64,000 nucleotides of DNA from a virus: IMG/VR virus record IMGVR_UViG_3300044646_002092, positions 52,445 to 116,444 of that record; one strand, written 5' to 3'. Shown here piece after piece: positions 15,714 through 52,653 of the stretch. The notes beneath the pieces were generated by a model. That model ran no database searches. It saw nothing but the letters and a program-made list of their open reading frames with translations, and was not told the DNA's origin. The stretch's first letter is position 1. The number at the start of each line of letters is the position of its first letter. The position numbers were made by a program, and so were the translations under genes.

Positions 15714-17110
15714 AAGTATTGCTTAATTTGTTCAAATTCACTACCAAGCCAATTCCAAAAACTCACATTGTCCCAGCTATACACCCTTTTGGGCAACGGC
15801 TGGGACATCACACTGAAGGCACTCGCGCCACTTTCAAGGTAAATACCGTTACATAGTCCTAAAATACCGCCAGCTATAGAAAAGAGATTGGAGTTTGTTG
15901 CGATTGTAGTTGCGTAAGAAGTTACAATGTTGATGTCTGCCGAATTTACTCTGAGACGTAGTTCTGTAGCTGTTTTTTGAACCCAAATGTGTTGCCAAGC
16001 ATTTGTGGGCGCGACCCACGAAGTTGAGATAACTGCACTGCCATTGATAGCCACCTCAAGATTATTACTGCTCGTTTTTTTAAGCGCAAACACACCATTC
16101 TTTTCTGCCAACGTCGCTTGACGACCTGCGGTTGGGGTCGTAAAATAGCAAAAACAATTGAAAGTGAACTCATTAGGAAAAACAACATCTTCATAAGATA
16201 TAGATGTACCCGCAGAAGCTACTAAACACTCGGTTCCAAATAATTTCTTTTCTGACTCATATTCAATCCCCGACATTGATGCGATTTTTGAATTGCTGCT
16301 CTGGTCACTCAACCTACCATTGAAATCTAAGTGTAGGAGGCTCGAATTATTACTTGGGGATACATATGACATTAAATCTACTGCAACGTCTGGAATCCTC
16401 AAAACGAGACTATTAGAATAAATGATAGAATTTGGCTTGAGAGTTGTAGGAATCGAAATATCCGCCTCGAACCAAATGTTGTTGCTTGCATCAGTAATTC
16501 TTGCGAGATTTATTGTGCTATTAATACTCGGTAAAGTCTGCGTGTTACCATACTCGAAAAATATCTCGCCAAGTGTACCGATTTCTTTTTTTGACCATTT
16601 GCTCGGTGTCAGTGCTAGTGTGGCTTGCAGCGTATTGTTATTGTTGTAATACTTGGCGCTCAGCGCGCTGGGAAAGAGCGAAGCTGTACCTTTGAATAGT
16701 AAGTTAAGTATAGCGTTGCTAAGCGTAGCCGTGCCAAAGTCCAGTGTCAGTGTTAAGCCTGTACCAGAGTAGAGAGTTAGTTCGCTGCCAGCCTCTATGG
16801 TGACATCAGAAAATGCAGCATTAGCAACGATAATGCCGTCAGAGGTAGTAAGGCGGAGGGAGAGGGGTAGCGCATAGGTTGAGATGGCAGCTCCGAAATT
16901 GATGTCGAGTGTGTTAGTGCAAATGTTGTTTGTAATTATCCAGTAGCTTGCGTCTAGATTGAGCGCTGAGATGCCAAACAGTGTGTTGGTGATGTTAGTT
17001 CCGCTTGTGTCATGCAGAGTAGCTAGAATTGGCAAAGAAGCTGCTGTGATGGTTTGCTGCTTTATTACTTTTTCTGTGATATCGACGCAAGTGCTGAAGA
17101 GTGTGGTCAT
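15710..17110 (-). CDS. Virion protein with a C-terminal LamG-like domain
   Basis: SLLHLDFNG...KLFGT...FTFNCFCYF...WQHIWVQK. Confidence 0.7.
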   Translation of the reverse strand: MTTLFSTCVDITEKVIKQQTITAASLPILATLHDTSGTNITNTLFGISALNLDASYWIITNNICTNTLDINFGAAISTYALPLSLRLTTSDGIIVANAAFSDVTIEAGSELTLYSGTGLTLTLDFGTATLSNAILNLLFKGTASLFPSALSAKYYNNNNTLQATLALTPSKWSKKEIGTLGEIFFEYGNTQTLPSINSTINLARITDASNNIWFEADISIPTTLKPNSIIYSNSLVLRIPDVAVDLMSYVSPSNNSSLLHLDFNGRLSDQSSNSKIASMSGIEYESEKKLFGTECLVASAGTSISYEDVVFPNEFTFNCFCYFTTPTAGRQATLAEKNGVFALKKTSSNNLEVAINGSAVISTSWVAPTNAWQHIWVQKTATELRLRVNSADINIVTSYATTIATNSNLFSIAGGILGLCNGIYLESGASAFSVMSQPLPKRVYSWDNVSFWNWLGSEFEQIKQYF

Positions 17111-17559
17111 TCTAAAGTAAATTGAGGGACAGGTCTTTTTATTTTTATCCCACTCTTGATAGTGGGTACAGGTTCTTCCATCATTCCGCCAAACCCTTTA
17201 AATGGGTCTTTGCGGAATCCTAGATACCCCGTAGGACTAGCTGCTGTGTCAGAAACTTTGCGAATATCTGTAAATCCTTCTGAAATTGGTATACGTTTTG
17301 AGGTTGAGTATTTCTCAGAGGGCATATATACTTTAGCTTTTGGGTTATCGTTCTTATATTTGTTTCCGTCCCAATACATAGATTGCCTAGCTAAATACAT
17401 GGGTGTATCATCAGCCCAACCGCCCATAACTTTTTGATGAGTCTCGATGTCATATCCTGTATTGTTCAGATAGTTTTTGTTCCCTTGGTCTAATTGGAAC
17501 TGTTTTTTCTTTAACCTATTAACAGTTCTAGTAATTCCGAAATCAGCAAAGTGTTGCAT
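17107..17559 (-). CDS. HFANF-tag protein A (paralog of 49589..50089)
   Basis: Starts MQHFADFG; shares DIRKV.D.A.S..GY.GFR.DPFKG.GGMMEE with its paralog. Confidence 0.7.
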   Translation of the reverse strand: MQHFADFGITRTVNRLKKKQFQLDQGNKNYLNNTGYDIETHQKVMGGWADDTPMYLARQSMYWDGNKYKNDNPKAKVYMPSEKYSTSKRIPISEGFTDIRKVSDTAASPTGYLGFRKDPFKGFGGMMEEPVPTIKSGIKIKRPVPQFTLE

Positions 17560-26586: not shown

Positions 26587-27261
26587 CTAATATACGAACC
26601 CGTTGTAACGTCGCACTTTGAAGTTGGCAAAGGGGGAGGTATTCATAGAAGTATTTGCAGACTTCATTGGTTTGGCTCCACGACCAAACCTATTATCTAA
26701 AGGAAGTACGCCATCTGCTTCTGCTCTACTTAGGTCAGTAATTCCATTTTGCTCGTAATTTTGTTTCGCATTTTTTCTTGTCTTATTAACAAAATCTTGA
26801 GTTGCATCTTCTGCTGGTACTGCAACTGGTTTAGCCGCAGGTAACTGAGCTTGCTGTTTAGGTGCGTTAGGTGTAAATGGCTGATTGTTAATCGGTGTCT
26901 GAGTTACATTTGTAGCGGAAGCATTAGTAGTAGCTGGCAACATAGCCTGATTACCGACTTGCCCTGCTTTACGTGCTTGCCAAGCATTCTTTAGTCTAGA
27001 ACCGCCATAACCCGCAGCACCACCTAAAGCAGCACCACCACCGACTTGACCAGCAAGATTACCAATCGATTTGTCATCGCTACCAAGATAGTTAATTGCA
27101 CCGACTCCTGCGCCGATACCAGCACCAAGTTTAGCGGCTCCTCCAGATGTAGAGAGCGCTTTACCAGCTTTAGTGCCAAGTTGCCCTGCCAATCCTGCCC
27201 AATCGACAGCAAAATTGGCGTATTTAGGATTTGTTGCTAATGCGTATGCGGAAATTCTCAT
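26587..27261 (-). CDS. Gly/Ala-rich low-complexity protein with ANF motifs at both ends
   Basis: PKYANFA near the N-terminus and SPFANFK near the C-terminus; GAG-rich hydrophobic segments. Confidence 0.65.
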   Translation of the reverse strand: MRISAYALATNPKYANFAVDWAGLAGQLGTKAGKALSTSGGAAKLGAGIGAGVGAINYLGSDDKSIGNLAGQVGGGAALGGAAGYGGSRLKNAWQARKAGQVGNQAMLPATTNASATNVTQTPINNQPFTPNAPKQQAQLPAAKPVAVPAEDATQDFVNKTRKNAKQNYEQNGITDLSRAEADGVLPLDNRFGRGAKPMKSANTSMNTSPFANFKVRRYNGFVY

Positions 27262-32910: not shown

Positions 32911-35610
32911 ATGACACTAATTAGACCATCAACAATATATTATTATCGAACTAAAGCAGTAAATTTGAATGGAGAATCCCCATACTCAAATATAGTTTCA
33001 GTAACAACTCCTGCGTCCTCACTTGGCATTGGCGTTACTCCTCCTTCCCCATCTCAGCCCTTAATCATAACGGTAGAAAAGAATAGCAACTCTATCAGGG
33101 TAGAATTGCAAAAAGCTGCTCCTAACGAGTACCTAAAAGAGTTAAAACTTGATGTATCGGTAAACGCTGACTTCAGCGCACCACTTTACTCTAATCTAAC
33201 GTTTTTACTAACGCAAAATATTGCGGCGACAGAAAAAGAAACTCTGGCGCTTACTATTGGCGGCTTAGCGGCAAATACGCTTTATTACTACCGCTTGCGT
33301 TTCTCAAATGCAACTGGACTTTCGGCGTGGACTTCAGCTTCACTCTCTACTACACCAAATTTCCCTATTCCAGACCTCCTCGGCACAACCAATCTCACAG
33401 CTATTGCAGCTCGACTAAACTGGGGCAAAGTGACTGGCGCAACTACATATTTTGTAGATTTATCTACAAACATTGGCTTCACTTCATTAATCCTTAATAA
33501 TGTCAATGCAGGAGATGTCAGTTTTCGAGATGTAGGGTCACTTACGGCTGAAAATCAATATTACTATCGTGTAAGGGCTTCGGATGGCACAACTACCTCG
33601 GCTAGCAGCGATGTAGTGACTTTTACGACACTTCGAGATGTAGAAACTTATGATGAGCAATTTCAGAATCTCGCAACACCGACAATCAGCAACATAACAG
33701 ATATTTACCTCACTTATTTTTCTGTATACTGGGGCAAAGTGGCTTTAGCGGATAGTTATAATGCTCAAATTTCAACTACATCTGACTTTAGCTCGATTAC
33801 TCAAACCGTAAGTACCAAAAATAACTTTGTCAATTTCACAGGTCTAACGGCTGCAACAATCTACTATGTTCGAGTACGGGCAATCTCTGTTTGGCAAACT
33901 ACTACGTATTCAGCCACACAAGTCGTCACAACGCTTTCCCTAAATACTTCATTAAATCCACCACAACTTCTTACACCAACTACAATAACCTCGAAGAGCA
34001 TTTTGTTCCAATGGGTTCTACGCAGCTATGCCACTCGTTATTTGTTTGAGCTAAGCACTTCATCAGTTTTTGCTTCTAGTGCTTACTCGACTATTGTAGG
34101 TAATGTTGGGTCTTTGCTACTAAATGAAGGTATTAGCCCCGCAACAACCTATTATTCACGTATTAGAGCGCTCAATTCTAGTCAGTCCTCAGATTACTCC
34201 AACTCTGTCACTACAACGACCTCAGCAGCCCTTACAAGCATAACTGGAGTCACTACAACTAGTATTACCGATACTTCGGCAGTTATTGGCTGGACTTTGA
34301 ATGGTAGCTACACCGATTATTTGCTTTCAGTGTGGAAAACAGAGTCAAATGCTTATTTAGGAGTCAACTTCTATCGTAATAAGAGCCTTGGGAACACTAA
34401 CACGCACACAATTGACCTATTCTTAGAGCCAAACACCAATTACAGCTACACAATCGCTGGAAAAACAGCTTCTGGGGATACTTTAACGACTCCCGTACAG
34501 ACTTTCTCGACCAAAGCGGCTGCACCAATACTTCAACTAGCTAAAAATCTGCTCACTTGGACTTACAATCTCGACAATCTCGAAGTTAGCACTGATTCTG
34601 ATTTCAAATTCTTGCTTAAGGGGTATCCAAGAAGCGTAGCGAACAATGGCAGCTTCAATGCAGAGAATTTGCTTGACTCTAGTACCAATTACTATATTCG
34701 CGGCAACTTTGAGGGGGGCATCTACTCCAATATAGTCAGTACATCAGCTTTGGCGGTTTACAAAGGCATTATTGGAAAGACTTCCTTTTCTGCCTTCTGG
34801 AAACGTAATGCTGGAGCTACTTCATACAGTGTTCAACTAAAAGTGCTAGATACTGGCAATTATGTGCCTGTAAGTGGTTTCACGTTCCCTAAAAATGTTG
34901 GTGACGTTAGCAGCTACACATTTGAATCTCTTTCTGCCGACACACAATATCAGGTAATTATATATGACTCAAGCTCAAACGTTTCTATCCCGTATTTATT
35001 CAAAACTAATCTGTTTAGCGATACAGAGGAACCTACTACTGCATCTCTTACGATTCCTACAGTAACTCTTGACGGAAGTGCTGATTTTGACCGAGCTAGT
35101 GTAGTGCTAAGTGGTTATTCCAAGTATCTGCTCAATTTGGCGCGAGATAGTGCATTTACGCTCGATAATACTTATTTTGAGAGCAGTTCCAATAATATTG
35201 AGCTTCTGCTTAAGCCTAATCGCACATATTACCTACGTGCTTACGGGTATAACGGAGATGACCGCAGTACTGACCCTTCAACTACCCTTACAATCAATAC
35301 ACCCATTGAACCATATACTGAGCTTACTATCTCTTCAGCGCCAAGCATTACTAATATCAATATACTTGATGAGTCACAAGTCGAACTAACTTTTTCGCAA
35401 GTAGTTAACGCAACTGACTACACGCTTGAGATTAGTAGAGCAAATACCTTTACAATTCTTGAGGAGCTGAGTGTTACAAGGTCTGCTGATAACAAATTCT
35501 TAATCTTCGGATTGAGTGGAACGACTGTATATTACGCTAGACTGTATGCTTTCAATAGCACCAAAATCTCTGCTTACTCATCTACAACTACGGTGGACAC
35601 AACCCCATAA
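32911..35610 (+). CDS. Multi-fibronectin type III (FN3) virion protein
   Basis: Repeated L.P.T.YYYR.RA.N..G.S.YS units. Confidence 0.85.
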   Translation: MTLIRPSTIYYYRTKAVNLNGESPYSNIVSVTTPASSLGIGVTPPSPSQPLIITVEKNSNSIRVELQKAAPNEYLKELKLDVSVNADFSAPLYSNLTFLLTQNIAATEKETLALTIGGLAANTLYYYRLRFSNATGLSAWTSASLSTTPNFPIPDLLGTTNLTAIAARLNWGKVTGATTYFVDLSTNIGFTSLILNNVNAGDVSFRDVGSLTAENQYYYRVRASDGTTTSASSDVVTFTTLRDVETYDEQFQNLATPTISNITDIYLTYFSVYWGKVALADSYNAQISTTSDFSSITQTVSTKNNFVNFTGLTAATIYYVRVRAISVWQTTTYSATQVVTTLSLNTSLNPPQLLTPTTITSKSILFQWVLRSYATRYLFELSTSSVFASSAYSTIVGNVGSLLLNEGISPATTYYSRIRALNSSQSSDYSNSVTTTTSAALTSITGVTTTSITDTSAVIGWTLNGSYTDYLLSVWKTESNAYLGVNFYRNKSLGNTNTHTIDLFLEPNTNYSYTIAGKTASGDTLTTPVQTFSTKAAAPILQLAKNLLTWTYNLDNLEVSTDSDFKFLLKGYPRSVANNGSFNAENLLDSSTNYYIRGNFEGGIYSNIVSTSALAVYKGIIGKTSFSAFWKRNAGATSYSVQLKVLDTGNYVPVSGFTFPKNVGDVSSYTFESLSADTQYQVIIYDSSSNVSIPYLFKTNLFSDTEEPTTASLTIPTVTLDGSADFDRASVVLSGYSKYLLNLARDSAFTLDNTYFESSSNNIELLLKPNRTYYLRAYGYNGDDRSTDPSTTLTINTPIEPYTELTISSAPSITNINILDESQVELTFSQVVNATDYTLEISRANTFTILEELSVTRSADNKFLIFGLSGTTVYYARLYAFNSTKISAYSSTTTVDTTP

Positions 35611-35614
35611 AGAT

Positions 35615-36292
35615 ATGATGAAAAACTTCGCTAATTTCAATCTTAGACCTGAAAAAATAAATCTTTACGATAGCAACATAAAAAAAGTTGACTATGTTCC
35701 GTCAATGGGGCAAGTTATCATACGAAATTATCCTGAAGATGCTTTAGACCAAAAAAACGCTAGAGAGGAATTTCATAATGCAAAGAAAGCTGAAAAAACT
35801 AGAGTAGTACCTCAAGTTGGTAAAGATGTGGTAAAACAATCTGACGGAGCAGTGGCATATACTCAAAAATATGGTGGGCGAATGTTGGAAGATTATATTG
35901 ATGATATGTCCCCTAAGCAGAAGTATAAACTTGGTAATCAATTAGGGCGAAGCCAAAGCCGACTAGTTGAACAAGCAAATCTCTATCATGACGATATATT
36001 CGAGAGAAATGTCACTATACCTAATCCTAAGAAGAGCAAAGCTTATCTCATAGATAATGCTTCACTTCAAAAGGTTACGCCAGACAACATAAAATACGCC
36101 AGAAAAGTAATTGGACTACCTGATATTGTAAGTAAAGGATTCACTAAAGGTATACGATTTAACAGTATGAAACACTTCGCTAACTTTGCAAATATTTATC
36201 AGACTGGACTGCAAAATCTGATTAGTCCTGTGGTAGAAAAAGAAGCTAAGAAATACGTCAGAAAAAAGAAAGAAGAGCAGAAAGAGGAATAA
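35615..36292 (+). CDS. Protein-kinase-like (Bud32/RIO/APH-type) protein flanked by FANF motifs
   Basis: alphaC-like REEFHNA, hinge YTQKYGGRML, catalytic loop HDDIFERN (HxDxxxxN), YLIDNA at the DFG position; MKNFANF at the N-terminus and MKHFANF at 36167. Confidence 0.65.
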   Translation: MMKNFANFNLRPEKINLYDSNIKKVDYVPSMGQVIIRNYPEDALDQKNAREEFHNAKKAEKTRVVPQVGKDVVKQSDGAVAYTQKYGGRMLEDYIDDMSPKQKYKLGNQLGRSQSRLVEQANLYHDDIFERNVTIPNPKKSKAYLIDNASLQKVTPDNIKYARKVIGLPDIVSKGFTKGIRFNSMKHFANFANIYQTGLQNLISPVVEKEAKKYVRKKKEEQKEE

Positions 36293-36440
36293 TAGGGCGC
36301 ACACCAGTTTCAGCATAATTTAGAGGCTTGGTGTGCTGTTTCGCTCCGAAGTTTGAGGACTGTTAGTAGCCTTTCGGAGCCTGTTAGCTGGAGGCGAATG
36401 ATGTCTTTTGCGAAGTGACTTTTTCAATATAGCACAACTA

Positions 36441-37970
36441 CTAGGCTTGAGGCGCTCCCTCTTGAGGAGGATATTGCTCAGCTTGTCCTTCAGGTGGCGG
36501 CATAGGGGCAGACATCTGATTTATTTGAGCTTGAAGTGCAAGAACTTCACTTTGTTTTTGCAACTCTTTTTGTATCTCAGCTTTGAGTGCATCTTCTTGC
36601 TTCTTGGCTTTTTCTTCTTCGTCGAGCGAAGGTAGTCCAAGATTCTTACGGATGAGGCTAAGTACCTCAACATCATCAGCAGGAATAATGCCAGATGCAA
36701 TGAGTGAAGTGATGGTGCTGAGACGACCGTTGACTGTTGCTTGGTCTTCTTCCACATCAAAAACAAATTCTCCCCAATCTTCGCTGAACCAGCTTGAAGG
36801 AAAGTTGTCATGTAGCAAGCCACGAATCATCTTGTGAATAATTTCGTGCTTGAGTGTAGTTGTTAGCGCAAAAATAGTTGAGTCAAAGGTCATTTTGAAA
36901 TTCTGACCAAAACCATTGTTGCCTAGATTTGTCGTGCCTGAACCGCTATTAACGTCGAAGATGCCTGAAGGTATTGCGAAGCTCGATTGAATGCCTCTAT
37001 CGATGTATTCTAGAGCTTTGAAGTGATTTTCGCTAGTATTTTGTATTTGGATGCGAGTAAGTTCAACGTCGTTATCAGTGACAATGAATCCGCGTTTTTG
37101 AATGTCTTTTAGTTGGTGCGAAAGAGCCGCTTGTTTTGTTAATTGAAGTGGTTTACCCTTGCTGTCTTTTTTGACGTTACCTTGGGTGTCAACCATTGTG
37201 GTCGTGCCGTTGTTGGGTGTTTTTGCCCAGAGTAGACCTTCGCTGTCGTTTTTGATGCGGAGAGCTAGGTGCGTGAGTACTACACGTTTTAGGCGATAAT
37301 ATGGCAGCGCTGATATACCGTCCCCAATACCCCAAACACTTGAAGCGTCGAATGCTGAGCCGCTATTGTTAATTATGTGTATACATTTCTGATATGGAAT
37401 TTTTACTTCCTTTCCATCTCCGTTTCGATACAAAATCCATTCAATCTTGCCCGATTGAGTTGATGACTTCCCAAAAGAAACTATTTGGTCAGGATTCAGG
37501 ACGTTGATATTACCTATTCTCCATTGCCCCCTGTACCCTCGCAGCTTTGATGATTTTGTAAATTCCGCAACTCCAACGCCATGTAGGATAACTGAGGAAA
37601 GTAACTTAAATATAATTTGCTTGAAACTTTTGGGGAGCGTTTTTAAATTACTATTTACAAAAGCCTCTATTTCTTTCTTAGGATGTGAATATTCTCCGAA
37701 ACTTTGGGTTGCCCTAAGTGCTTTAAATGATAAGCATTGGCTTGCTATGGGGTCACGGCTCGCCATGAGCGACATTTCGCGAATTGGAGGACGCTCGGTT
37801 TCTGTAGGATGGTTAATTGCTTGTAGTGCTAATCCTGTGAGCGACGCAATTTCTGTGGAGTATTGTCCTTGTTGAAGTGCTGCCATTGGCGTAGGGGTTC
37901 CAGCAAACAGCAAAGAATCGTCTAGGTCTTCTAATAGGTTTAACTGAGTTGCTTCCTCGAACATTGGCAT
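36441..37970 (-). CDS. Phage portal protein (DUF935/Mu gp29-like)
   Basis: 509 aa; M..RDP....CL..KAL, GV.V.E, WG.G....ALPYY.LKR, ID..I...F.IP and a Q/P-rich tail fit a portal architecture. Confidence 0.65.
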   Translation of the reverse strand: MPMFEEATQLNLLEDLDDSLLFAGTPTPMAALQQGQYSTEIASLTGLALQAINHPTETERPPIREMSLMASRDPIASQCLSFKALRATQSFGEYSHPKKEIEAFVNSNLKTLPKSFKQIIFKLLSSVILHGVGVAEFTKSSKLRGYRGQWRIGNINVLNPDQIVSFGKSSTQSGKIEWILYRNGDGKEVKIPYQKCIHIINNSGSAFDASSVWGIGDGISALPYYRLKRVVLTHLALRIKNDSEGLLWAKTPNNGTTTMVDTQGNVKKDSKGKPLQLTKQAALSHQLKDIQKRGFIVTDNDVELTRIQIQNTSENHFKALEYIDRGIQSSFAIPSGIFDVNSGSGTTNLGNNGFGQNFKMTFDSTIFALTTTLKHEIIHKMIRGLLHDNFPSSWFSEDWGEFVFDVEEDQATVNGRLSTITSLIASGIIPADDVEVLSLIRKNLGLPSLDEEEKAKKQEDALKAEIQKELQKQSEVLALQAQINQMSAPMPPPEGQAEQYPPQEGAPQA

Positions 37971-38003: not shown

Positions 38004-38924
38004 TTATACCGTACTAGATGCGTGATTGAGTTTCTCTTCTTCGGTAGCGTATCTGTAATTTACAAAATCAGGGCTGGAACTTTTTATTCTTTTGCCTAGG
38101 GTAGCCTTACTTATACCTTCTAATTTTACAGCTAATCTCATCGATTCGTAATAAACATTATTTACCAAAACAGGTATACTACTAGGAGTACCAGCACCAG
38201 TCAGTTTTGCACTTATTTTAGCTCTAGCCTCCATTGTCACATCTCTTCCCATAGTTGCAGCGCTAATTTTAGCTTTAGTTTCTTCAGATGTAACTTTACC
38301 TTTCTGAAAAGCACTCATTTTTGCTCTGCTCTCAGTAGTGTGTACTCTACCCTTATTTATAGAGGCTAAATACACTATTCTTTCTTTCATCTCATCTGTA
38401 AAGGGTCTATCTTTCGCTATTTCACTCATCTTTGCTTTTGTTTCTTCAGTATGTTTCCTACCCTTACCAGCCAAACTGATTTTTTCTCTTGTTTTTTCTG
38501 AGACAATTCTGCCAGTACTTGCAGCACGCAACTTAGATTTGGTTTCCTCGGTATGCTTCTTGCCAAGTCTAGTCTGCTGACCTTTTTTGGATGCCCTCAT
38601 TTTAGCTTTCATCTCTTCTGTAAGATTAACCCCACCCCTCCCGCCAAGACTTATATTGTAGGTGTCTTCACGTTTGACAAATTCTTGAGTTACCATTTCA
38701 GCTTCGGCTAAATAAGCATCAGTAGCACAACTAAATTCAGCCAGTGTAGTCCTAATAAATTTATCTTTACCATACTTCTTCACAGCCAACTGTAAAGCAT
38801 CCCCACTTCCGATATAACACTTAGACTTAGAAGTATTTGAAAGCTTATGCACCCCCACATAAATTTTGCCATTACAAACGTTCGTAGTTTTATATAAAAT
38901 CCAAATCTCTTTATTTGTTTCCAT
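38004..38924 (-). CDS. GIY-YIG homing endonuclease with NUMOD3 repeats (copy 1)
   Basis: ILYKTTN..NGKIYVGVH...YIGSG...AVKKYGK..F; HTEETKAKMS repeats. Confidence 0.9.
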   Translation of the reverse strand: METNKEIWILYKTTNVCNGKIYVGVHKLSNTSKSKCYIGSGDALQLAVKKYGKDKFIRTTLAEFSCATDAYLAEAEMVTQEFVKREDTYNISLGGRGGVNLTEEMKAKMRASKKGQQTRLGKKHTEETKSKLRAASTGRIVSEKTREKISLAGKGRKHTEETKAKMSEIAKDRPFTDEMKERIVYLASINKGRVHTTESRAKMSAFQKGKVTSEETKAKISAATMGRDVTMEARAKISAKLTGAGTPSSIPVLVNNVYYESMRLAVKLEGISKATLGKRIKSSSPDFVNYRYATEEEKLNHASSTV

Positions 38925-41336: not shown

Positions 41337-43232
41337 CTAAAAAAATCCTGAAGGAAATAGGCTAGGTTCTTGACTCATTCTCAGTTTCTGCTCTGGATTA
41401 GGTGAACGCACAAGTATAGACTCGGTATCACTAGCTGCTATCGGTCTATACCCAATATTGAAACTACTGACGCTACTACCGCCCAAAGCTCCAAGAATTT
41501 GCGTATATATTGCTATGTACGCATTTTGTCTATTATTTGGGTTAGTGCTATCAGGAGACGAGAAACTTGGCGCTAAACTAAAACTAGGAGCCGAAGGCAC
41601 AACAGAATTGTCGTAAAAACGGTCGCCAGACGATGAACTTGACCCTATGCGCTCTGGGTTGACTTGATAGTAGTAACAGCCTTCGTGAGAAAAAAGCGGA
41701 GGCATACTATATCTTAAAACAAAGCTAAACTCTCCTCGACGAATAGGGAAGTAGCCAGTCTCAGGATTTGGCGGCGCATCCCAAGTTGTTATAACTTGAT
41801 TTGGTAATGTTTTGAATAGTTCTCCATAAGGCGCACTACCCTCTACAAATAATGTTGATTTTCTCTCTAAGCCTGTAGCTCTATCAACAAAAAATGTGTA
41901 TTGATTCTTAGTTAAAGGATATACATCAAGAATTTGCCCATAAGCCCACCAATACTTATATTGCCACTCATAACTGACACCACGTTTACCTACAGAGCTT
42001 TTTATTTCGTATGGATGATTTATTTTTCCTTCTGCCGTACCCATATCTAGTCGCAGGAGATTTGCACCTTCTTTTGAAGCTGCAAGTACACCAAAAGGAT
42101 TAGGTCGAATTACATTTGATTTCTGAGAATACTTTTGCAAACTAAATCTAGCTTGGTCAGTGCCGTAGTCAGGTGATTGACGAGGAGAAAATAAAGTATA
42201 GTTAGTATTTCCTACATAAGTCGCATCTGAATTGCAAAACTCAGTAATATTTTTTTCTGTCAGCAACGCAGATTGCCTTGGACGTAATACAAGTTCAAGA
42301 TTATAATCTGAAATTCTGTTGTGGACTATAACTCCAGTATTTTCCAATAACTTGTCATCATTACTAACAGAGTATCTTCTCCACCTATATCTGAGTACTG
42401 ATTGACCTCTGCACCAAGTATAGGAATAAGTAGGGGTGACACTGTATGACACAACAGTAAAATTGACACCATTAACAGTTGAGATTTTTTTATAGCGCTC
42501 ATCACTAGCTGGAGCTACCCCTTCAATGGGTATTCTATCTTCTGGGTCAATTACCATACAAGCCCAGATGCCTCCACCAAGATAGTTTAAGTTATCTAGA
42601 GAGAAGTTTGATTTAAAGCACTTTGGCAGTCCTACTGTATCAAGATTTAGTTGATAAATAGTCCTCTCCCCAATATTGATTCCGTCATTTTGAGGTGAGA
42701 TGTCCGAATTATCGATGCTAACTAAAGTCCAATCTACCTCCTTAAGACCATCTTGCTTATTTTTGGTAGATTTTACATATGCAATGTGAGCAGACCATCC
42801 TTCTCGATTGGATGAATTGGCTGAGACGTATGCGCGTATCTGAGTCTGGTAACTATCACAGAAAAAAGTATAGATTGGTTCATTAGTGCCCCTTAAATCC
42901 TCATCAATATACACAGAAAAATAATTAATAAGTTCACCATCAGACTCTGGGAACTTAACAGGAGCTGGCAGAGGAAACTTAGCAAGTATGGCGCTTTTTT
43001 CGAGGTTGGTTTGAGTTATTCTTAGACGCGAAATCGCCGTGGTTAAGGGAAGTCCCGTAAGTCTACGAACTGTGATGAGTTTGAATAGCGACTCATTCGG
43101 TGTCCTTTGCTTATTCCGTTTTTGTACCTTAGTGTCAACCGTTGATTGATTTGAGACTAAAATCCACTCGGAAGTTTGCGAGTCCCTCAGATATACGCGA
43201 CCCGCATTATCCCTTTTAACAAATCTTCCCAT
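41337..43232 (-). CDS. Hypothetical protein (631 aa), probably virion-associated
   Basis: Long ORF coupled to 43233..43628. Confidence 0.65.
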   Translation of the reverse strand: MGRFVKRDNAGRVYLRDSQTSEWILVSNQSTVDTKVQKRNKQRTPNESLFKLITVRRLTGLPLTTAISRLRITQTNLEKSAILAKFPLPAPVKFPESDGELINYFSVYIDEDLRGTNEPIYTFFCDSYQTQIRAYVSANSSNREGWSAHIAYVKSTKNKQDGLKEVDWTLVSIDNSDISPQNDGINIGERTIYQLNLDTVGLPKCFKSNFSLDNLNYLGGGIWACMVIDPEDRIPIEGVAPASDERYKKISTVNGVNFTVVSYSVTPTYSYTWCRGQSVLRYRWRRYSVSNDDKLLENTGVIVHNRISDYNLELVLRPRQSALLTEKNITEFCNSDATYVGNTNYTLFSPRQSPDYGTDQARFSLQKYSQKSNVIRPNPFGVLAASKEGANLLRLDMGTAEGKINHPYEIKSSVGKRGVSYEWQYKYWWAYGQILDVYPLTKNQYTFFVDRATGLERKSTLFVEGSAPYGELFKTLPNQVITTWDAPPNPETGYFPIRRGEFSFVLRYSMPPLFSHEGCYYYQVNPERIGSSSSSGDRFYDNSVVPSAPSFSLAPSFSSPDSTNPNNRQNAYIAIYTQILGALGGSSVSSFNIGYRPIAASDTESILVRSPNPEQKLRMSQEPSLFPSGFF

Positions 43233-43628
43233 TTAGAAATTTACAAAGTGCTGGAAATTACTACTGAAGCCGCCGTACTGACCAACCTGAGCATTTTGTT
43301 GACTTTTCCAGTTACCAACACTAGTTTTTCGACGAATCACACCGTTTGCGTCATAGAACTCATCTGGGGCAAGAGGTTTTTGAGGATTTCTAGGTGCTTG
43401 TTGCTTACTCATACCACGACCCACGCTGGCGCTTGCAATTGCCTCCTGCCTGTTCAAGCTAGGAGGAGCATTCTGCACTACTGCTGCCCTCTGGTCACGA
43501 GTCAGCGATAAAGGAGAAGCGTTTAAGGGAGAATTTCCCCAAGTCGGCACGTTGGGTTGTTGAGGCTTAAATGCTTGACGTAGTTGAGAGGCTTTGTTTG
43601 AAATTGTTGGTAGAAATGTTTGTGGCAT
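43233..43628 (-). CDS. Q/P/N-rich disordered protein ending in FQHFVNF
   Basis: C-terminal motif resembles the HFANF tag. Confidence 0.6.
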   Translation of the reverse strand: MPQTFLPTISNKASQLRQAFKPQQPNVPTWGNSPLNASPLSLTRDQRAAVVQNAPPSLNRQEAIASASVGRGMSKQQAPRNPQKPLAPDEFYDANGVIRRKTSVGNWKSQQNAQVGQYGGFSSNFQHFVNF

Positions 43629-52340: not shown

Positions 52341-52653
52341 GTCTCATGCGCCGACGGGCTGGAAAATTTTAGAAGAAGTAGAAGTAGTGATTCTACGTGT
52401 ATAAAACACAAAAATAAGTCAGGCTGAAATGTAAGCTCCGAAAGACTTTCAAAATTTCCGTACAAAACTTACGTTGTGTTTTTATTTTTTTAAATTTGGT
52501 CAGGTCGTGGTTTTTGTGAGGTTTTGGTTATTAGAAAAAGTTAAGTTAGTGTTTTGTTGTGGTTTTAGCTGTTGATTTTAAGTATATCTTTAGAGAGATG
52601 GTAAGCACTTTGTGGTTTGTGCTATATTAATAAAAGAAAACAAAAACTCACTA

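Follow-up and report, generated by a model that had tools for sequence, protein, structure and literature searches.

A gene at positions 35615-36292 of a 64,000-nucleotide (nt) stretch of viral DNA (positions 52,445 to 116,444 of the IMG/VR record IMGVR_UViG_3300044646_002092, hereafter the window) encodes a small protein in which a kinase-like core stands between two copies of a seven-residue peptide, the tag, and is followed by a short basic tail. This arrangement raises the question of what such a protein may do in a phage and what the repeated tag is for. The record is 116 kb long and is related, with a nucleotide identity of about 81%, to two siphophages of Pseudanabaena, PA-SR01 and Pam2; as judged from this relatedness, the phage belongs to the PA-SR01/Pam2 type of Pseudanabaena siphophages and is a freshwater cyanobacterial virus. 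The answer proposed here, to which we assign somewhat better than an even chance, is that the gene encodes a two-module virion cargo consisting of a mini-kinase (residues ~8-183) and a small basic peptide, with the tag as loading signal. The anatomy of the gene, its predicted fold, an indel bounded by repeats, a recent exchange of the cassette, the recurrence of the tag under selection at the peptide level, and the detection of tagged proteins and of the long kinase paralog in virions of Pam2 are regarded as established. An earlier sequence-only reading of the locus had seen a Bud32/RIO/APH-type kinase core flanked by near-repeats and had proposed a virion-packaged kinase delivered at infection; what it observed has been confirmed, while its interpretation is partly supported.

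The fused gene, its repeats and its tail module

The gene is composed of the following parts:

35618..36292, plus strand: fused open reading frame (ORF) of tag, kinase-like core, tag and basic tail, 224 amino acids (aa); stop codon at 36290-36292
35618..35638, plus strand: tag copy 1, MKNFANF, in the left repeat copy
35645..36160, plus strand: predicted minimal protein-kinase-like domain, residues 11-182 (from AlphaFold, Foldseek, VIA and invariant residues)
36167..36187, plus strand: tag copy 2, MKHFANF, internal, in the right repeat copy
36188..36289, plus strand: tail module with a conserved NIYQTGL, then a Lys/Arg-rich and then an acidic segment; orthologous to a stand-alone gene

The ORF noted at first sight at 35615-36292 is indeed present and comprises 225 or 224 aa, depending on the start codon: a second ATG at 35615, one codon upstream of that at 35618, adds a single methionine. 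The ATG at 35618 is the likelier start of the tag, because the tag then has its canonical M-x-[HN]-F spacing and because this ATG lies 7 nt behind the stop codon of the upstream FN3-repeat gene, exactly as does the ATG of the small ORF that occupies this site in Pam2 and PA-SR01. The ATGATG doublet also occurs at the stand-alone small ORFs of the relatives L029 and L032. All residue numbers given here count from the ATG at 35615 (MM start).

The near-repeats on either side of the core, which had likewise been described from the letters of the DNA, extend over 20 nt each (35618-35637 and 36167-36186), are identical at 18 of 20 positions and are spaced 549 nt apart, which equals exactly 183 codons. 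With up to three mismatches allowed, the 20-mer matches three times in the window (0.08 expected), the third match (17540-17559) being the start of another tagged ORF. The kinase-less relative L025 carries a small ORF that equals the tail of the window's protein residue for residue from the NIYQ segment on, and its single tag-coding 20-mer aligns to both repeats of the window in blastn; the fused and the kinase-less states therefore differ by exactly one repeat plus the kinase module. As judged from this alignment, the kinase module represents an indel that preserves the reading frame and has the tag-coding repeat at its borders. It would have entered the small gene, or have been lost from it, by recombination within the tag-coding 20-mers, and because the crossover falls within these, the kinase module would always stay in frame.

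The kinase-less state represents the majority at this site. The fused form was found in the window, in two contigs with an identical cassette and, in diverged form, in P0009, whose fused protein is 60% identical; a word-indexed homolog search returned this identical cluster plus the one 60% relative and nothing further, and profiles of the family run against metagenome and viral contigs brought up long paralogs and identical copies, but no others. The two contigs share the following islands with the window, the edges of which were taken from 200-nt sliding identity and blastn:

35298..36297, no strand: ~100% nucleotide identity to IMGVR_UViG_3300045999_012868 (last 200 nt 99.5%; flanks 77-96%)
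34511-36110, no strand: 100% identity to IMGVR_UViG_3300042525_001281

Across both contigs the flanks of the islands are 66-96% identical, and the three phages are otherwise 66-92% identical. Islands of 100% identity inside diverged flanks indicate recent lateral exchange by homologous recombination, so that, on the evidence of these comparisons, co-circulating phages have recently exchanged the cassette. A recent duplication of the long kinase paralog of the same genome, a protein of 344 aa encoded elsewhere (L006), was ruled out as a source, since it is only 38% identical to the window copy.

Tag copy 2 and the tail make up the last 41 residues of the protein (isoelectric point 9.4), the tail proper being a charged stretch of 34 residues behind a tag that begins with its own methionine, as had been noticed before. 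Stand-alone counterparts of 55 aa in Pam2 and 51 aa in PA-SR01 are encoded at the same site and align with these last 41 residues, and a survey of 14 portal-linked loci revealed a stand-alone small ORF (42-57 aa) in nine further IMG/VR contigs. The tail is thus an independent gene in 11 relatives, which establishes the supposed fusion to a second tagged mini-protein; three more stand-alone forms (P0017-P0019) exist among metagenome representatives.

It is conceivable, if rather unlikely, that the tail is also made as a separate product, either by initiation at the ATG at 36167, which would give a nested tagged peptide of 41 aa, or by proteolysis at the internal tag, and that the gene thereby supplies two virion cargos. 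Met, His and Phe of the internal tag are invariant across fused and stand-alone forms, despite deep divergence among the fused ones, 11 relatives encode this peptide in a gene of its own, and other tagged modules, too, are met in fused as well as in separate form, all of which would fit such a dual output. On the other side, a Shine-Dalgarno sequence was not found upstream of 36167, the numbers of promoter-like and of terminator-like elements in its vicinity equal the shuffle expectation, and the conserved methionine could simply belong to the recognized motif.

The kinase-like core

A HMMER search of 1.8 billion representative proteins returned ten relatives in all, from which the kinase-like family appears as tiny and confined to one cyanophage clade. 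The motifs pointed out in the sequence-only reading are all present: the core contains the catalytic loop H125-D-D127-I-F-E-R-N132 and the segment Y-L-I-D147-N148, and H125, D127, N132, D147 and N148 are invariant in an alignment of 10 family members with 30-62% identity. The family has thus kept the H-x-D-x4-N catalytic loop and the metal-binding Asp (the DFG equivalent) of kinases. In addition, the position of Glu53 in the predicted alpha-C helix is conserved as Glu or Asp, and a near-invariant Lys stands at the start of beta2.

As regards the fold, two AlphaFold models and three fold searches agree on a kinase-like architecture, in line with the assignment made beforehand, this agreement being one of predicted structures. 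The full-length model reached a predicted local distance difference test (pLDDT) value of 70 with poor packing of the lobes, and its N-lobe alone superposed on kinases (Z 9.1). The model of the core alone (residues 11-182) had a pLDDT of 82.5 and a predicted template modelling (TM) score of 0.76, with resolved lobe packing; it is bilobal, with a five-stranded N-lobe sheet carrying alpha-C, a hinge, and a helical C-lobe core. Foldseek returned at least 500 matches to the core model at E <= 0.001, and all matches listed are kinase-like; the best mutual TM values, 0.63/0.50, were obtained with human PRPK, the Bud32 homolog. VIA-align gave Z values of 12.7 for ERK3, 12.4 for Rio1 of A. fulgidus and 12.2 for PRPK, with 160-168 of the 172 residues aligned at a root-mean-square deviation of 3.7-3.9 A, and a Foldseek-independent scan of 48,161 chains placed kinase-like proteins in 49 of its 50 top rows. 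Profile comparisons point in the same direction at low strength: Pfam matches of family members stay below threshold (ABC1 in five of the ten at E 0.015, Kdo at 3.6e-4, RIO1 at 2.5e-3), none of the curated kinase families (Pkinase, RIO1, Kdo, ABC1, APH) reaches significance for any of them, and the best PDB profile match has an E of 0.15, the weak matches being nearly all kinases, with the motifs in register with twitchin and ULK1. For the long paralog in Pam2, an HHpred call of casein kinase I with a probability of 0.94 was reported (PMC9382816). Taken together, the models support a protein-kinase-like fold of the Bud32/RIO type, and the predicted core is among the smallest protein-kinase-like domains known, with a shape near those of Bud32/PRPK and RIO.

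An enzymatic activity of this predicted core is plausible, not assured, and several features speak against it. The fused protein has no match in Pfam or PHROG. The VAIK Lys of beta3 is missing: as already suspected, Arg37 takes its usual place at the end of the third predicted beta strand in the short clade. In the long clade this position is occupied by Asp, with an Arg two residues before it, the equivalence of these positions being derived from secondary structure and not from coordinates. Furthermore, no member has a glycine between strands 15-19 and 23-28, where the Gly-rich loop would be expected. With these two canonical features missing, the domain may lack activity or handle ATP in a non-standard manner.

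We consider it unlikely, to a slightly greater degree than a separate tail product, that the domain, though of kinase fold, is a pseudokinase or else a purely nucleotide-binding or structural module that serves as a virion or assembly component and binds without phosphotransfer. Apart from the replaced VAIK Lys and the missing G-x-G-x-x-G loop, such a role would agree with the truncated C-lobe, the lack of an activation segment in the models and the sub-threshold scores of all kinase Pfam models. However, the catalytic-loop H, D and N and the metal-binding Asp are invariant at 30-62% identity, which is unusual for pseudokinases, and the alpha-C Glu/Asp and the near-invariant beta2 Lys are retained. 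A further argument against a pseudokinase is that WNK kinases rely on a Lys in beta2 and that Bud32 and RIO, whose C-lobes are just as small, are active enzymes. We continue to regard the core as a candidate mini-kinase.

The tag peptide and its link to the virus particle

The tag of the window's protein recurs in this phage group. A six-frame scan of three genomes yielded 27 instances with the consensus M-[QKE]-H-F-[AVT]-[NHD]-F-[GAN], nearly all at the first Met of an ORF, and a degenerate DNA pattern for M-x-H-F-A-N-F occurs 6 times in the window's genome, 5 times in Pam2, 7 times in PA-SR01 and 1-8 times in five relatives, while reversed-pattern controls gave 0 in all genomes. The internal copies lie at module boundaries: all fused members of the kinase family have one behind the kinase domain, and a PA-SR01 protein has one ahead of its SNF2 helicase domain. 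The tag copies vary in synonymous codons, and no conservation is seen upstream of the ATG, which together indicate that selection acts on the tag as a peptide; a DNA-level regulatory repeat as explanation of the tag was ruled out on the same grounds. The tagged proteins are otherwise unrelated and include Gly-zipper modules, small basic peptides, the kinase and one paralogous set, the members of which share a common N-terminal stretch directly after the tag. On the basis of these scans, each genome of this phage group encodes about 7-10 proteins that begin with the tag and are unrelated in other respects. Two more tagged ORFs of the window are:

17107..17559, minus strand: MQHFADF, 150 aa
49589..50089, minus strand: MEHFANF, 166 aa

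The N-terminal ~45 residues of the latter closely match Pam2 ORF44 (166 aa, virion-detected), of which it is likely the ortholog.

The connection to the virion comes from the mass spectrometry of purified Pam2 particles, in which 27 of 191 ORFs were positive (PMC9382816, Table S2); the tag pattern among the virion proteins drew no comment from the authors of that study (PMC9382816). The tagged ORFs of Pam2 are 37, 39, 41, 42, 44, 52, 118, 186, 187 and 189, and eight of these 10 are virion-positive, compared to 19 of the 181 other ORFs (Fisher p = 2.2e-6). If the structural gene blocks alone are counted, the enrichment persists, with 7 of 9 tagged ORFs positive vs 17 of 63 others (p = 0.005). 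ORF118 (L013:18812-19459, plus strand), the sole tagged ORF of the replication module, lies on the opposite strand to its neighbours and is one of three virion positives among the 119 ORFs of that module. ORF189 (gp189), the long kinase paralog, is virion-positive as well. From this pattern the tag is most likely a signal for loading into the virus particle. The virion kinase suggested in the sequence-only reading thus gains indirect support from gp189 and from eight of the 10 tagged Pam2 proteins, whereas the packaging of the window's own protein is what we infer from them.

In the mechanism envisaged here, the tag would bring the window's protein into the particle, in a similar way as the capsid targeting sequence (CTS) of phage T4, and the protein would be ejected together with the DNA at infection. 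The minimal Bud32/RIO-like kinase or ATPase might then act on an early host or phage target, presumably by phosphorylation, while the basic tail might hold the protein on DNA. The tag-coding sequence would in addition supply the short homology through which modules enter, leave or become joined in frame.

Several observations reduce the weight of this scheme. Among the 27 instances, tag copy 1 alone has Asn in place of the His at position 3, mass spectrometry of Pam2 virions did not pick up the tagged ORFs 37 and 52, and the virion data stem from the sister phage Pam2 and not from the window's phage. The protein is moreover a short paralog, without Gly-zipper modules, of the virion-detected long one, and the Pam2 list includes a RuvC-like protein, so that some positives may be contaminants. 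Searches for a prohead protease and for tag cleavage turned up no candidate either: a PF10123 prohead protease search gave no signal, its controls being equally silent, the head-module ORFs of Pam2 matched no protease family in Pfam and PHROG, and no Prp peptidase (PF04327) was found in the window's genome and five related phage genomes, in a search whose controls responded. A full-text literature search for the tag motif returned nothing relevant.

That the tag is no loading signal at all, but a DNA recombination joint, an element for translation initiation or stability, a degron or a protease site, appears improbable. The enrichment in the mass spectrometry data would then merely mirror late, highly expressed genes, and most tagged genes indeed lie in late or structural clusters; furthermore, the edges of the indel fall exactly in the tag-coding repeats, and the kinase paralogs as well as the PA-SR01 SNF2 helicase have internal tags where their modules meet. 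Yet the peptide is kept despite synonymous codons, with nothing conserved upstream of the ATG, and the enrichment also holds inside the structural region and extends to ORF118 of the replication module. A role as recombination joint is in any case compatible with a loading signal rather than exclusive of it, and the tag as loading signal remains our preferred interpretation.

Tag-like motifs were also noted in other contexts. In the window, an ORF of 131 aa (43233-43628, minus strand) ends in FQHFVNF right before its stop codon, and an ORF of 631 aa (41337-43232, minus strand) begins with Met, in frame, directly after this stop; the pair ORF46/ORF47 of Pam2 is arranged alike, ORF46 being virion-detected. 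The two window ORFs could represent a stop-codon read-through or a split fusion. A 224-aa protein (26587-27261, minus strand) has a KYANF near its N-terminus, as has the N-terminus of virion-detected Pam2 ORF57, and gave a weak PHROG match to an 'internal virion protein with endolysin domain' (E 0.005). Pam2 ORF146 (ON014754.1 117947-118447), with a loose tag variant only, is virion-positive and stands on the opposite strand in the replication/early region. The PA-SR01 protein QIW88461 (L048:1082-2878, minus strand), annotated as DEAD/DEAH box helicase, belongs to the SNF2 family (Helicase_C 4e-16, SNF2-rel_dom 5e-15) and carries its internal tag at about residue 128, after an N-terminal module with two twin-arginine-like RRxFLKN motifs. 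A Gly-zipper-like module with weak Pfam Gly-zipper matches occurs as a stand-alone tagged gene (G000 C1:198-884, minus strand; L018:4377-5084, plus strand) and, in one or two tandem copies with a tag-like motif before each, at the C-termini of P0012, P0014-P0016 and L006:1081-2115 (minus strand); a role in membrane insertion after ejection is possible.

Surroundings, known counterparts and implications

The gene lies in the structural region, as stated in the earlier description of the locus, between a tail gene upstream and a convergent portal gene downstream:

32911..35610, plus strand: FN3-repeat tail or minor tail protein, 899 aa (Pfam fn3 3.9e-22; PHROG major/minor tail protein)
36441..37970, minus strand: portal protein (Pfam Portal_Mu 6e-11)
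38004-38924, minus strand: GIY-YIG/NUMOD3 homing endonuclease, beyond the portal gene

The Pam2 ortholog of the portal protein is annotated as portal and is positive in mass spectrometry. The homing endonuclease beside the portal gene shows 40-58% identity among relatives, compared to 72-85% for the flanking genes, is lacking in Pam2 and PA-SR01, and in one relative (L034:5878-6633) instead separates the FN3 gene from the small tagged ORF; its divergence, absence and relocation mark the FN3-portal interval as a hot spot of gene mobility. The kinase gene and the convergent portal gene are separated by 148 nt (36293-36440). This gap is 80% identical to that of L008, well below both flanks, and contains an imperfect GC-rich inverted repeat (~36298-36345), maybe a bidirectional terminator, on which a simple scan made no call.

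Among the known counterparts are the long paralogs Pam2 gp189 and PA-SR01 QIW88440, annotated as 'casein kinase I-like protein 1' or hypothetical, which share 36-40% identity over ~170-200 residues, the same invariant residues, and a tag motif directly after the kinase domain. They differ in being core genes beside the terminase region that end in one or two Gly-zipper modules, whereas the window's gene is an accessory copy elsewhere with a basic-peptide end. Bud32/PRPK (of KEOPS) and RIO1 have the same minimal bilobal fold (Z 12.2-12.4), the H-x-D-x4-N loop with the metal-binding Asp, and a short C-lobe without activation segment. Unlike these, the window's family has Arg or Asp in place of the beta3 Lys, lacks P-loop glycines and any detectable membership in a sequence family, and carries tags and Gly-zipper or basic tails outside a KEOPS or ribosome context. 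The injected bacterial effector kinases OspG, NleH and HopBF1 are likewise domains of ~170-200 residues without a substrate-binding C-lobe, and OspG was among the structural matches (Z 7.4); in contrast to these effectors, delivery would be by the phage particle and not by a secretion system, and only the common fold is shared. The least probable of the readings, that the core is an active kinase whose substrate is not a protein but a glycan or small molecule (for instance a host envelope sugar, a lipid or an antibiotic-like compound), draws on the O-antigen-terminating sugar kinase WbdD as top Foldseek match in both searches (18-21% identity), on Kdo/WaaP (3.6e-4), RIO1 and ABC1 as best single Pfam matches of the family, with choline kinase weaker, and on APH enzymes in the 48,161-chain search, but these matches are sub-threshold and level with those to protein kinases in their hundreds, mutual coverage is highest with PRPK/Bud32 and Rio1, and sugar- or lipid-binding elements were not identified.

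For the tag, the nearest parallel is found in T4, which loads the Alt ADP-ribosyltransferase via its CTS and injects it with the DNA. As in the phages considered here, a short N-terminal peptide is the sole common feature of diverse loaded proteins, enzymes included, and the CTS loci are recombinationally plastic, as are the tagged loci. The internal proteins IPI-III of T4 are diverse, share only the short N-terminal CTS, and are drawn into the scaffolding core (PMC3012670). The tag differs from the CTS by its sequence, by its occurrence in a cyanobacterial siphophage and by being also internal with its Met kept, and often doubled. A second likeness concerns the leaders of the capsid and scaffold proteins of staphylococcal phage 80-alpha and of ribosomal protein L27, which are processed by Prp and have an N-terminal motif containing Q-[FH]-F-A. 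This motif resembles the MQHFA of many tag copies; a Prp gene was not found in the six phage genomes of this clade. What is known are the kinds to which the CTS-like tag and the minimal kinase belong, and what is unusual is their modular genetics.

Injected phage proteins are the first to act in an infection, and next to nothing is known about how they are selected outside T4, T7, P22, N4 and giant phages. The tag represents a simple, sequence-readable candidate for a loading code in bloom-associated cyanophages, a group of ecological importance, with which a published proteome agrees; if it is confirmed, the set of injected proteins would become predictable from genomes, and foreign proteins could be loaded into cyanophage particles. 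We know of no documented phage example of a virion-borne kinase, and literature searches for one found none; the present results point to virion-borne kinases as a new enzyme class for phage particles. The island of 100% identity shows a kinase cassette now spreading among diverged phages, suggesting that it is useful to them. More tentatively, and clearly below an even chance, M-x-H-F-A-N-F may be a portable label that loads changeable cargo, namely the mini-kinase, Gly-zipper membrane modules, small basic peptides and possibly an SNF2 helicase, while its coding sequence doubles as an in-frame recombination joint for the swapping, fusion and splitting of cargo modules. If this holds true, the injected arsenal of these phages would be reshuffled without frame breaks, and internal labels would allow several products per gene, each loaded separately or cleaved off.

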